In this document: positions 6,696 through 8,708 of the stretch, piece by piece
Numbering within the stretch: position 1 is the first letter of the stretch
Layout of the letters: every line of letters begins with the position of its first letter
From: a virus
Lineage: Duplodnaviria; Heunggongvirae; Uroviricota; Caudoviricetes
Strand: one strand, 5' to 3'
Length of the DNA stretch: 64,000 nucleotides
Virus record (IMG/VR): IMGVR_UViG_3300042535_000037
Location: 100,031-164,030 of that record
Translations under genes and position numbers: made by a program
Notes under the pieces: model-generated
Database searches by the model: none
What the model was told of the DNA's origin: nothing
What the model saw: the letters and a program-made list of their open reading frames with translations, nothing else

Positions 6696-6792
6696 GTACG
6701 CAGCCAATAATTAAGTTATAAAATAGTACACTATAACAAAAGAAAATGAAAGCCACGTTTGTATCTAGTGCTTTGGATGCAAGGCTGCGTAC
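6696..6792 (+). ncRNA. terminal-stem RNA, copy A
   Basis: Perfect 10-bp GTACGCAGCC/GGCTGCGTAC; starts 23 nt after TTTTTATA; homologous to 8628-8708. Confidence 0.75.
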
Positions 6793-6799
6793 TCAACTA

Positions 6800-6897
6800 G
6801 GGTGTGAGGCGAATGGAACGCGCACGAAAAATTCATTCCTAAACGTTTGAGTCACCAAAGTTTCGTGAAAAATCAGGTTCGAACCCTGACATACCCA
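6800..6897 (+). tRNA. tRNA-like gene with a 35-nt anticodon loop (intron or cargo; anticodon unresolved)
   Basis: Acceptor GGGTGTG/CATACCC, D-arm GCG/CGC, anticodon stem CACGA/TCGTG, T-arm TCAGG-TTCGAAC-CCTGA; no encoded CCA. Confidence 0.75.
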
Positions 6898-6899
6898 TC

Positions 6900-6970
6900 G
6901 GGCGATTGTGCGACAGGTGACAGTGCCACTGCTTAACAGTTGTTGGATGTCTAACTGTACGAATCCTGTT
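6900..6970 (+). ncRNA. structured element after the tRNA-like gene
   Basis: GACAGG/CCTGTT enclosing CAGT/ACTG and ACAGTT/AACTGT hairpins. Confidence 0.35.
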
Positions 6971-7161
6971 ATTTAGATATTCCTAATCCCTGTAAGATTC
7001 TAGAAACTTCAGAATTAGGAGAAGGTTTGTCGATATAAAAAGGTCTAGACAGCCTAATAAGTCGCTTCACCATGTTATGTATCCTCATCAGGTACGGTGA
7101 ATGGTCTAGTGCGCAATCGCCTGAACCACACATTTTTATATCTTCCCACCTATTTACAATC

Positions 7162-7323
7162 ATGAGAATCATATTTTCCGAAAAAGACAAGCGTGAAATC
7201 AAAGAACGCGCCCAATTCATGCACTTCACTATTTCAGATGAAGACTTCAAAAAGTACTCTGACCACATGGACCTATACAAAAATTACACCCTTCTAGCCG
7301 AAGACATAAAAAAGAAAAGATGA
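7162..7323 (+). CDS. small hypothetical protein (start corrected)
   Basis: TTTTTATA about 22 nt before ATG 7162. Confidence 0.55.
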   Translation: MRIIFSEKDKREIKERAQFMHFTISDEDFKKYSDHMDLYKNYTLLAEDIKKKR

Positions 7324-7457
7324 ACTTCACTAAACTAATTTTCTCAATATTTTTGCTATCATGCACCATCATGACTATCTATGTTTTCTTTTTTCTTTCA
7401 GGATAACTATTTATAATATAAAAGTGTTTTTATATACATGAATTTTATTGGTTGAAC

Positions 7458-8168
7458 TTATTTCAACCATTTAAATCCATTCATATTCTTTTTTACATAC
7501 TCATATGCTTCTGGATACTTTTCTCTAAAGAACTTCTTTTCTTCTTCACTCCCTATATAATAGCTGAAACTCTCAGCCATAGCTTCATCCATATTATATG
7601 TTCCAAAATTACCTATGTAGTGACCATTTCCATTTCCTTTACCGAAAATATTGCTATTTTGCAGTCTAATTTTTTCTTCAACATTTACACCATCTTCCCA
7701 TACATGCCCGCTTTCATGTCTTAGAGTATGTGCTCTACTTCCAATATCCAATTTAAAATACTTATCTCCTAGTAATATTTTTGATACTCCATGTTGGTTA
7801 GGTAAACATTCTGCTTCACTTTTTATAGAATCATATACTACTCTAAACCTGAATTCTTCAAAACATGGTACTCCACTTACGCCATACATTATTTCATCTT
7901 TCTCATAAGTAGCCATTCTCCAAAAAACATCTCTCTTCTCTACAATCTTCCAAATTTCTTCTCTACTCCTTGGAACCAGAATACTTTGAATCTTCCCCTG
8001 CTGCAACACTCCATCTTTCCTCAAATCTCCAATAACAACCATAGTACCTCTTGGATAACTCTTTTTCATCTTCACAATTTCCACAGGCACTACTTCTAAC
8101 GTATACTGAATAAAATCCTTCTCTGGAACTTTACTTTCCCTCTTAAATTTAACTTCATCATAATTCAT
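7458..8168 (-). CDS. zincin-type metallopeptidase (start corrected from 8282)
   Basis: HTLRHESGH (HExxH), then EAMAESFSYY..KYPEAYEYV, as in anthrax-LF-like/MPTase zincins. Confidence 0.75.
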   Translation of the reverse strand: MNYDEVKFKRESKVPEKDFIQYTLEVVPVEIVKMKKSYPRGTMVVIGDLRKDGVLQQGKIQSILVPRSREEIWKIVEKRDVFWRMATYEKDEIMYGVSGVPCFEEFRFRVVYDSIKSEAECLPNQHGVSKILLGDKYFKLDIGSRAHTLRHESGHVWEDGVNVEEKIRLQNSNIFGKGNGNGHYIGNFGTYNMDEAMAESFSYYIGSEEEKKFFREKYPEAYEYVKKNMNGFKWLK

Positions 8169-8247
8169 AATTATTTCAACAATCACAATACATATAAACA
8201 TTACTATATAGTAAAATTTATATACATAAAACACCATATTACAGTTT

Positions 8248-8592
8248 ATGTTCAACATAAAAAGTAACTTATCAGAATACAACGATGCTTTATCAATTCT
8301 TTCTTCAAATCACGATGAAAAAGAAATTGTTGTTAGTCCTTCAGTTGGAGCATTATTCAACGAAATGGGTATCAAAGTAAATCCAAACAACAGAATAGCT
8401 ACTCCCAACACATTCTACTACATAATCTCCACTTCAGACTTCAACGATTGGAGAAACACTCATGATTGGGCTTTCCTGTTGAATAACCACAAAAAACTAC
8501 ACATGGAGTACATAAAAGCAGTAGAATCAGTCACTCAAATATACGAAGAACTCATATCTGAAACTAATTCTATTGGAACTAAATTCCATTAA
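8248..8592 (+). CDS. hypothetical protein
   Basis: TATA box about 23 nt upstream. Confidence 0.7.
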   Translation: MFNIKSNLSEYNDALSILSSNHDEKEIVVSPSVGALFNEMGIKVNPNNRIATPNTFYYIISTSDFNDWRNTHDWAFLLNNHKKLHMEYIKAVESVTQIYEELISETNSIGTKFH

Positions 8593-8627
8593 ATAACTTT
8601 ATATACAAAGACATACTACATATAGCA

Positions 8628-8708
8628 TGTACGTGACCAATAATCAAAAATTAATATTTAGCATAATATACCTCAAATCGTAACACCTAGTCGTAAGGGT
8701 CACGTACA
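8628..8708 (+). ncRNA. terminal-stem RNA, copy B
   Basis: Perfect 11-bp TGTACGTGACC/GGTCACGTACA followed by AATAAT, as in copy A. Confidence 0.75.

Follow-up and report, generated by a model that had tools for sequence, protein, structure and literature searches.

In the tRNA gene cluster of bacteriophage T4, the small structured RNAs "species 1" and "species 2," both stable and without a known function, are matured by the tRNA-processing machinery, and in the tRNA-miRNA transcripts of murine gammaherpesvirus 68 (MHV68) and in MALAT1/mascRNA, tRNA-like structures serve as processing signals. In plant mitochondria, tRNA-shaped t-elements set the end of a neighboring RNA via RNase P or tRNase Z (PMC1920247). 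The 5′ leaders and spacers of tRNA operons, including the sponge formed by the 3′ external transcribed spacer (3′ETS) of E. coli glyW-cysT-leuZ, are non-tRNA RNAs that are cotranscribed with tRNAs and freed by tRNA-processing enzymes, as by-products or as functional molecules (Lalaouna et al., 2015, as cited in PMC9514646). Here, two related RNAs of 80–100 bases, leaders A and B, are described from IMG/VR virus record IMGVR_UViG_3300042535_000037, in which each fronts a cluster of odd tRNA-like genes. The window, that is, the whole stretch of 64,000 nucleotides (nt) analyzed, corresponds to bases 100031–164030 of this record, which is complete at 183,084 base pairs (bp) and carries direct terminal repeats. 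Leaders A and B are real and non-random: they are two paralogous RNAs, each a 5′ leader closed by a stem, from an archaeal virus that is an orphan, and they are best filed among the structured leaders of tRNA operons. Coordinates are those of the window unless genome positions are indicated, and all features of units A and B lie on the plus strand.

Leader A (6695–6792) is closed by a perfect 10-bp stem in which 6696–6705 (GUACGCAGCC) pair with 6783–6792 (GGCUGCGUAC), and leader B (8628–8708) by a perfect 11-bp stem between 8628–8638 and 8698–8708, where UGUACGUGACC pairs with GGGUCACGUACA (8697–8708). The two homologous terminal-stem RNAs that the original prediction had placed here were thus recovered, as paralogs, at the same positions. 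Folded in isolation, leader A reaches −30.3 kcal/mol (z = −4.3) and leader B −16.6 kcal/mol (z = −3.5), with none of 200 shuffled sequences as good, and both closing stems are kept when the whole units of 436 nt and 303 nt are folded. The covariance model R1 scores the two leaders at 115 and 86.5 bits, respectively. Leader A encloses an AU-rich hairpin (6715–6720 with 6732–6737) and a 10-bp 3′ hairpin that stacks on the closing stem (6759–6768 with 6773–6782). Both hairpins had been claimed for both copies; in leader B, the AU hairpin is weak (5 bp, 8654–8658 with 8665–8669) and the supposed 3′ hairpin is not real, amounting to 2 bp in the minimum-energy fold and being absent from the centroid.

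The position of the two leaders at the predicted transcription start is supported as well. An archaeal TFB-recognition element (BRE)/TATA motif with the long consensus TTTTTATACATAAAACACCATTACT lies upstream of about 100 genes of the virus genome, most of which are leaderless, with the A of the ATG mostly 20–21 nt past the TATA box. The promoter of unit A, composed of TTTTTATAC at 6666–6674 and a conserved CATTAC element at 6684–6689, fits this genome-wide consensus, and that of unit B (8598–8619, with TTTATATAC at 8598–8606) was assigned from the consensus and the TATA spacing. The distance from the TATA box to the G of GUACG is 21 nt in unit A and 22 nt in unit B, which is where leaderless genes have their first transcribed base; the leaders therefore begin at or just after the predicted transcription start, as had been proposed. 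Between the leader promoters and the first tRNA-like genes, which are on the same strand, there is neither an intervening promoter nor an oligo-T tract (no run of five or more T). Leader A is followed by the spacer UCAACUA (7 nt, 6793–6799) and leader B by AUAGA (5 nt, 8709–8713), both unpaired in the whole-unit folds, so that with the boundaries of the relaxed ARAGORN calls each leader ends 5–7 nt before a tRNA-like RNA and heads a tRNA-like cluster, in agreement with the original prediction. The whole-unit folds consist of separately closed domains, namely the leader, the tRNA-like RNA and a further RNA, with 0–7 unpaired bases between them.

Leaders A and B share a 5′ part of the form UGUACG-NNN-CCAAUAAU, followed by N-AA, and a 3′ part of the form AGG-NNN-CGUAC. 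At the 5′ end 14 of 17 nt are identical, as are 7 of the 10 stem pairs, and from A to B the three consecutive central pairs are changed on both sides (C–G to U–A, A–U to G–C, and G–C to A–U), that is, by six transitions that leave every cell of the alignment paired. The covariation formerly claimed for this triplet is therefore present in the sense that all three pairs are changed and still paired, but it is statistically weak, because 68 of 500 shuffles do as well and the test has no power with two sequences. The interiors of the leaders are unalignable, and their AU hairpins are out of register, whereas both leaders have the same outer 5 bp (GUACG/CGUAC) and the same unpaired AAUAAU. This identity suggests that the helix end may be recognized sequence-specifically as well.

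A third RNA of the virus begins with the same helix end. GTACG is rare, with 35 sites on the plus strand of the 183-kb genome, and on that strand only five GTACG…CGTAC pairs lie within 250 nt of each other, three of which are at the starts of the non-coding units A, B, and C. RNA C is a promoter-driven non-coding RNA of 208 nt outside the window (genome 79082–79289), which opens at its predicted transcription start with GGUACGAA, a 7-nt loop, and UUCGUACU. The whole RNA could instead be closed by a second CGUAC, 208 nt downstream, and since the two folds are nearly equal in energy (−55.9 versus −55.2 kcal/mol), RNA C may switch between them. A T-arm-like minihelix follows RNA C.

Helices at the 5′ terminus are common among the non-coding transcripts of this virus. 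In nine non-coding units, which are all the promoter-driven units lacking an open reading frame (ORF) that could be found, with start sites chosen by the analyst, the pairing probability over the first 8 nt averages 0.68, compared with 0.35 in 46 leaderless mRNAs (Mann–Whitney p = 0.0014). The non-coding transcripts of the virus thus tend in general to start inside a helix, and leaders A and B are the most elaborate cases. The recurring GUACG helix and the common 5′-terminal helices, both of which the original prediction had overlooked, shift the reading toward a leader or 5′-end device. Beyond units A and B, ORF-less promoter units that begin with hairpins are located at 37859–37990 and 39065–39300 of the window and at genome positions 45109, 52895, and 118194. 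In one of them, a 7-bp stem of UGCUAAC with GUUAGCA closes a 29-nt leader that directly abuts a tRNA-like RNA, and the leaders of tRNA-Asn (genome 45109) and of the unit at window 39065 start alike, with UUGCUGGCA and UUGCAGGCA.

We tentatively favor a reading, somewhat short of probable, in which two primary transcripts, each built from separately closed RNA domains, begin with a paralogous pair of self-folding leader modules, A and B, which would be their 5′ external transcribed spacers. Transcription would start at the G of GUACG or 1 nt before it, and the leader would close on itself after its 3′ strand is made, burying the 5′-triphosphate end in a helix of 10–11 bp. The buried end would shelter a non-translated RNA from 5′-end-dependent decay, for which the conservation in Euryarchaeota of aRNase J, a 5′–3′ exoribonuclease, is the background (PMC7144898), and the closed leader would keep its AU-rich sequence from mispairing with the tRNA-like domains. 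Because the helix stops 5–7 nt short of the acceptor stem of the tRNA-like RNA, the RNase P site would stay single-stranded, and RNase P would free the leader as an RNA of 86–105 nt. In designed hairpin–leader–tRNA constructs, RNase P was shown to require that the leader nucleotides immediately before the tRNA be accessible, and a hairpin masking them blocks the enzyme (PMC8925977); the unpaired spacers of 7 and 5 nt fit this need. The placement at +1, the bias of the non-coding units toward a 5′-terminal helix, the outstanding stability of the closing stems, which dominate the folds, the separate folding of each module, and the three pairs exchanged on both sides also speak for this reading. 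As befits operon leaders, A and B lie between the promoter and the first tRNA-like gene and leave the spacer at the RNase P site accessible. The release by RNase P envisaged in the original prediction is thus compatible with the single-stranded spacers, the cleavage itself being presumed.

Several observations weigh against the leader-module reading. Its weak point is that a pure clamp needs no particular sequence, yet A and B agree fully in the outer stem and in AAUAAU, and RNA C has the same outer 5 bp; because of this, a reading of the helix end as a handle is kept alive. The other non-coding units of the virus use unrelated hairpins, and at the chosen start sites 5′ pairing is low in two of the nine units (0.05 and 0.47). 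The downstream RNAs are tRNA-like rather than proven tRNAs, which makes RNase P cleavage an assumption. Comparative support is absent in a virus without detectable relatives, and two sediment metatranscriptome runs from one study contain only 0.20 and 0.07 of the sampled words of 6690–7130, a lead rather than evidence. Finally, this AT-rich 183-kb genome has 41 distinct perfect 10-bp inverted repeats with loops of 30–110 nt, a number near the shuffled expectation. Because such repeats are not rare, the significance of the leaders does not come from the 10-bp repeat itself but from where the repeats lie and what sequence they have in common. In the whole genome, A and B are the sole exact matches to the 13 specified bases of GTACGNNNCCAATAAT, and it is the combination of two such repeats at the predicted +1 of ORF-less promoters, with this common sequence and complementary arms, that is unusual.

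The main rival to the leader-module reading is that A and B are functional stable small RNAs, which we consider unlikely on present evidence. They would carry a constant handle, consisting of the GUACG/CGUAC-ended helix with AAUAAU and AA-GG at the junction, that is bound by a viral or host factor, and a variable interior that provides specificity or acts as a decoy or sponge, whereas the downstream tRNA-like RNA would serve mainly as an RNase P release signal. The retention of the handle at 14 of 17 nt and 7 of 10 stem pairs while the interior was diverged or replaced is in line with such a role, as is the occurrence of the same 5-bp helix end on a third, unrelated RNA. Units A and B and the cluster at 3604–4090 moreover resemble strings of stem-closed RNAs that are 0–7 nt apart, and spacers of tRNA transcripts that work as sponges provide a precedent (Lalaouna et al., 2015, again as cited in PMC9514646). 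The partner is hypothetical, however, and the TROVE/Ro60 gene is absent from the virus. Neither leader has a kink-turn (K-turn), C/D box, or T-loop motif, and the leader interiors have no antisense match of at least 13 nt in the viral genome, the lone 12-nt match coming from the 5′ stem strand of B and not from an interior. The interiors are AU-rich and, in B, weakly structured; there are just two copies, and accumulation of the RNAs is assumed. In its strongest form, which we regard as more doubtful again, the idea would make the GUACG/CGUAC helix a sequence-specific handle common to A, B, and the 208-nt RNA at genome 79082, and thus to three or more RNAs of the virus. These would then form a novel class of viral small RNAs in which the handle is constant and the body varies; RNase P would release them at an adjoining tRNA-like signal, and a protein of the virus or host dedicated to them would bind them, for instance so that a host factor of RNA processing or defense is sequestered.

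The constraint seen between A and B is best explained by pairing within one strand, the only reading that accounts for a central triplet whose two sides complement each other at either locus but differ from one locus to the other; a DNA-binding site, a transposon end, or a micro-ORF needs no such thing. It is accordingly very improbable that the inverted repeats act as DNA, whether as paired operator half-sites at the start of two co-regulated operons, as cruciforms, or as the ends of small mobile or duplicated segments. The 5′ arm does overlap the transcription start, a common binding place of archaeal repressors, terminal inverted repeats of related elements also change in concert, and GTAC is itself palindromic. 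A protein site would nevertheless not require an uncontacted central triplet to match within the locus, as strand pairing does, and a spacing of 60–77 bp between the arms is unusual for an operator. Neither copy is flanked by a target-site duplication or a direct repeat, the genome has two copies only, scans of IMG/VR and GTDB with the strict pattern returned no related copy, and in RNA C the same motif makes a short local hairpin. A miniature inverted-repeat transposable element or other terminal-inverted-repeat element was rejected, as neither many dispersed copies nor target-site duplications were found. The lowest probability of all falls to chance resemblance or a leaderless micro-ORF. 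Besides the frequency of 10-bp inverted repeats in the genome, this reading draws on leader B, in which a frame of 18 codons (ATG TAC GTG ACC AAT AAT…; 8627–8683) has its ATG exactly at the start position of leaderless genes; the (A/T)TG start belongs to the general initiator context, to which the micro-ORF reading of B is probably incidental. The corresponding frame in A, TTG TAC GCA GCC AAT AAT TAA (6 codons), would need a TTG start for six residues, the three differences follow no synonymous pattern, and the start codon would lie buried in the stem. Coding explains neither the complementary 3′ arms nor the exact match of 13 specified bases at these two promoter-proximal sites only.

As small structured RNAs in a viral tRNA-like cluster, the leaders resemble species 1 and species 2 of T4, but they have no sequence or fold similarity to them; the T4 RNAs are internal to their cluster, with 3′ parts that resemble tRNA, whereas the two leaders stand at the 5′ end and lack a T arm. 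Compared with the spacers of tRNA operons, A and B are 5′ leaders closed end to end by a perfect helix from +1, with a conserved helix end, in an archaeal virus, and with aberrant tRNA-like RNAs downstream. In contrast to t-elements, MHV68, and MALAT1, the RNA to be released stands upstream of the tRNA-like RNAs, which may be signals, decoys, or decoders. Engineered RNase P riboswitches (PMC8925977) have the same geometry, with a folded module and a 7-nt leader before a tRNA, where the short single-stranded leader decides on access of RNase P; these constructs are synthetic and ligand-switched, whereas nothing points to switching in A or B.

Y RNAs and the bacterial Y RNA-like (Yrl) RNAs likewise measure about 100 nt and have their 5′ and 3′ ends in a long terminal stem, and bacterial and phage Yrl RNAs are linked to tRNA-like modules and RNA-repair genes, the latter of which this virus also has, in the form of a Pnkp-type kinase-phosphatase-ligase. 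The Y-RNA-like role that had been floated for the leaders is nonetheless not supported on the features examined: a search for the TROVE/Ro60 domain PF05731 found it in control genomes but nowhere in the complete 183-kb record of the virus, the closing helices lack the bulge of a recognition helix, and no Y RNA model of Rfam matches. Archaeal C/D box small RNAs were rejected, since neither leader has a C box (RUGAUGA) or a D box (CUGA) and the junction sets AA opposite AA without tandem G–A pairs. Readings as H/ACA RNA, K-turn, T-loop, or terminator fail on the sequence, and the TTCRA motif of a T loop is absent from A and B. Bulge-helix-bulge processing stems, with two 3-nt bulges separated by a 4-bp helix, do not fit the uninterrupted closing helices. 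The repeat of the virus's own clustered regularly interspaced short palindromic repeats (CRISPR) is unrelated to the stems.

Searches for relatives agree with the earlier statement that the leaders belong to no recognized family: Rfam gave nothing relevant for the window at gathering thresholds or for 3500–9000 at E-values up to 10. In the genome, model R1 detected no copy besides A and B, and it had no match in 1.25 Mb of other viral contigs, chosen for their homologs of the CCA-adding enzyme or of the protease-like ORF. In IMG/VR, the 5′ arm alone gave chance matches only, one of them with a partial 3′ complement but otherwise unlike the leaders; both arms together gave one chance match, which was non-complementary, and neither the T arm plus acceptor of the first tRNA-like RNA of unit A nor the promoter consensus gave any match. 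Both arms gave 28 bacterial matches in GTDB (one genome per species), as expected by chance, and the one complementary match was dismissed as an unrelated 18-bp palindrome in a metagenome-assembled genome of Myxococcota. No match to GenBank phages was obtained with blastn. The three ORFs flanking the leaders have no homologs in sets of 5.8 or 1.8 billion proteins and are thus ORFans. The protease-like ORF has a sole homolog, 45% identical, on short Logan contigs of another archaeal-type virus, without synteny or an RNA cluster. Relatives of the CCA-adding enzyme are at most about 35% identical over most of the length, reaching 37–49% on short partial matches only, and the loci of such relatives that were fetched do not show the promoter pattern of the virus; no loci of relatives were obtained for the family B DNA polymerase (PolB) or for the ORF adjoining RNA C. 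The original prediction held that it would be countered by a lack of homologs or covariation elsewhere together with the lack of a discrete RNA, or by a match to a known Rfam family; neither homologs nor covariation were found elsewhere, which is half of the first condition, though in a virus without any known relatives, and no Rfam family matched. Because the virus is an orphan, the absence of homologs says little either way.

Sequences of the virus itself occur in four DNA runs, which comprise the source assembly and low-depth, near-identical reads in three freshwater metagenomes, with no variants in the leaders. Pieces of 151 nt with 0–2 differences to the virus, covering 6627–6777, 7649–7799, and 7818–7968, were found in these three freshwater runs (three studies), and more diverged pieces of about 90–95% identity cover the CCA-adding enzyme gene in freshwater metagenomes. 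The source sediment is therefore not the only place where the virus and a close strain occur.

Downstream of leader A, the tRNA-like RNA A1 (6800–6897), which was called by ARAGORN at relaxed thresholds only and by a T-arm scan, has a 7-bp acceptor stem and a canonical T arm with a TTCGAAC loop, while its anticodon-type stem, also of 7 bp, is broken up by an insertion of about 31 nt. It is followed by A2 (6900–7122), a module of about 223 nt that is closed by its own stem of at least 12 bp and lacks a T loop (z = −3.0 on folding). In unit B, the tRNA-like RNA B1 (8714–8815; relaxed ARAGORN threshold and fold) combines an acceptor stem of 7 bp and a T arm with a long extra arm and an anticodon-type loop of only 6 nt, CUUUAA, and is directly abutted by a second tRNA-like RNA, B2 (8816–8923; relaxed ARAGORN call at 8844–8922, T arm at 8898). 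With default settings ARAGORN detects no tRNA in the window, and the Rfam tRNA model RF00005 has no match in 3500–9000 at E-values up to 10; the sole RNA of the virus that passes this model is a tRNA-Asn outside the window (genome 45172), in addition to one weak match. Relaxed ARAGORN reads suppressor-type anticodons (UUA and CUA) in the tRNA-like RNAs at 6800–6897 and 8714–8815, and the standard code gives long ORFs in the virus despite these reads. Another RNA, at 3774–3887, is closed by a 10-bp inverted repeat and, together with A2, suggests operons in which one stem-closed RNA follows another.

At 10926–12209, 2 kb downstream of cluster B, lies the gene for a class II CCA-adding enzyme that includes an HD domain. 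Class II is the bacterial/eukaryal type of this enzyme, here carried by an archaeal virus, and CCA is not encoded in any of the tRNA-like RNAs that were read. An ORF of 236 amino acids on the minus strand (7458–8168) sits between the two RNA clusters and matches PF07737, the metalloprotease domain of the anthrax lethal factor type, below threshold, with 26.5 bits where the cut-off is 27.4. The nearest relatives of the PolB of the virus are those of haloarchaeal tailed viruses, at about 25% identity. Across the whole genome, GATC and GGCC have no sites, against about 503 and about 129 expected from the trinucleotide content, and CTAG and CCGG are depleted to 0.55–0.62 of expectation, which points to strong avoidance of host restriction sites.

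To our knowledge, very little has been established of how archaeal viruses make and use non-coding RNA. Several promoter-driven units of this virus are devoted to aberrant tRNA-like and stem-closed RNAs, beside its own CCA-adding and RNA-repair enzymes, and a virus so equipped is of more interest than two leaders alone. The locus also yields a simple testable rule, namely that the non-coding transcripts of the virus start inside a helix and its mRNAs do not, and leaders A and B are a natural compensatory variant pair for asking whether archaeal RNAs are protected by helices at their 5′ terminus or whether such helices guide RNase P. Should the helix end prove to be a protein-binding handle, these RNAs would represent a new class of viral small RNAs; if it is not, they would be ordinary, if unusually neat, precursor leaders.

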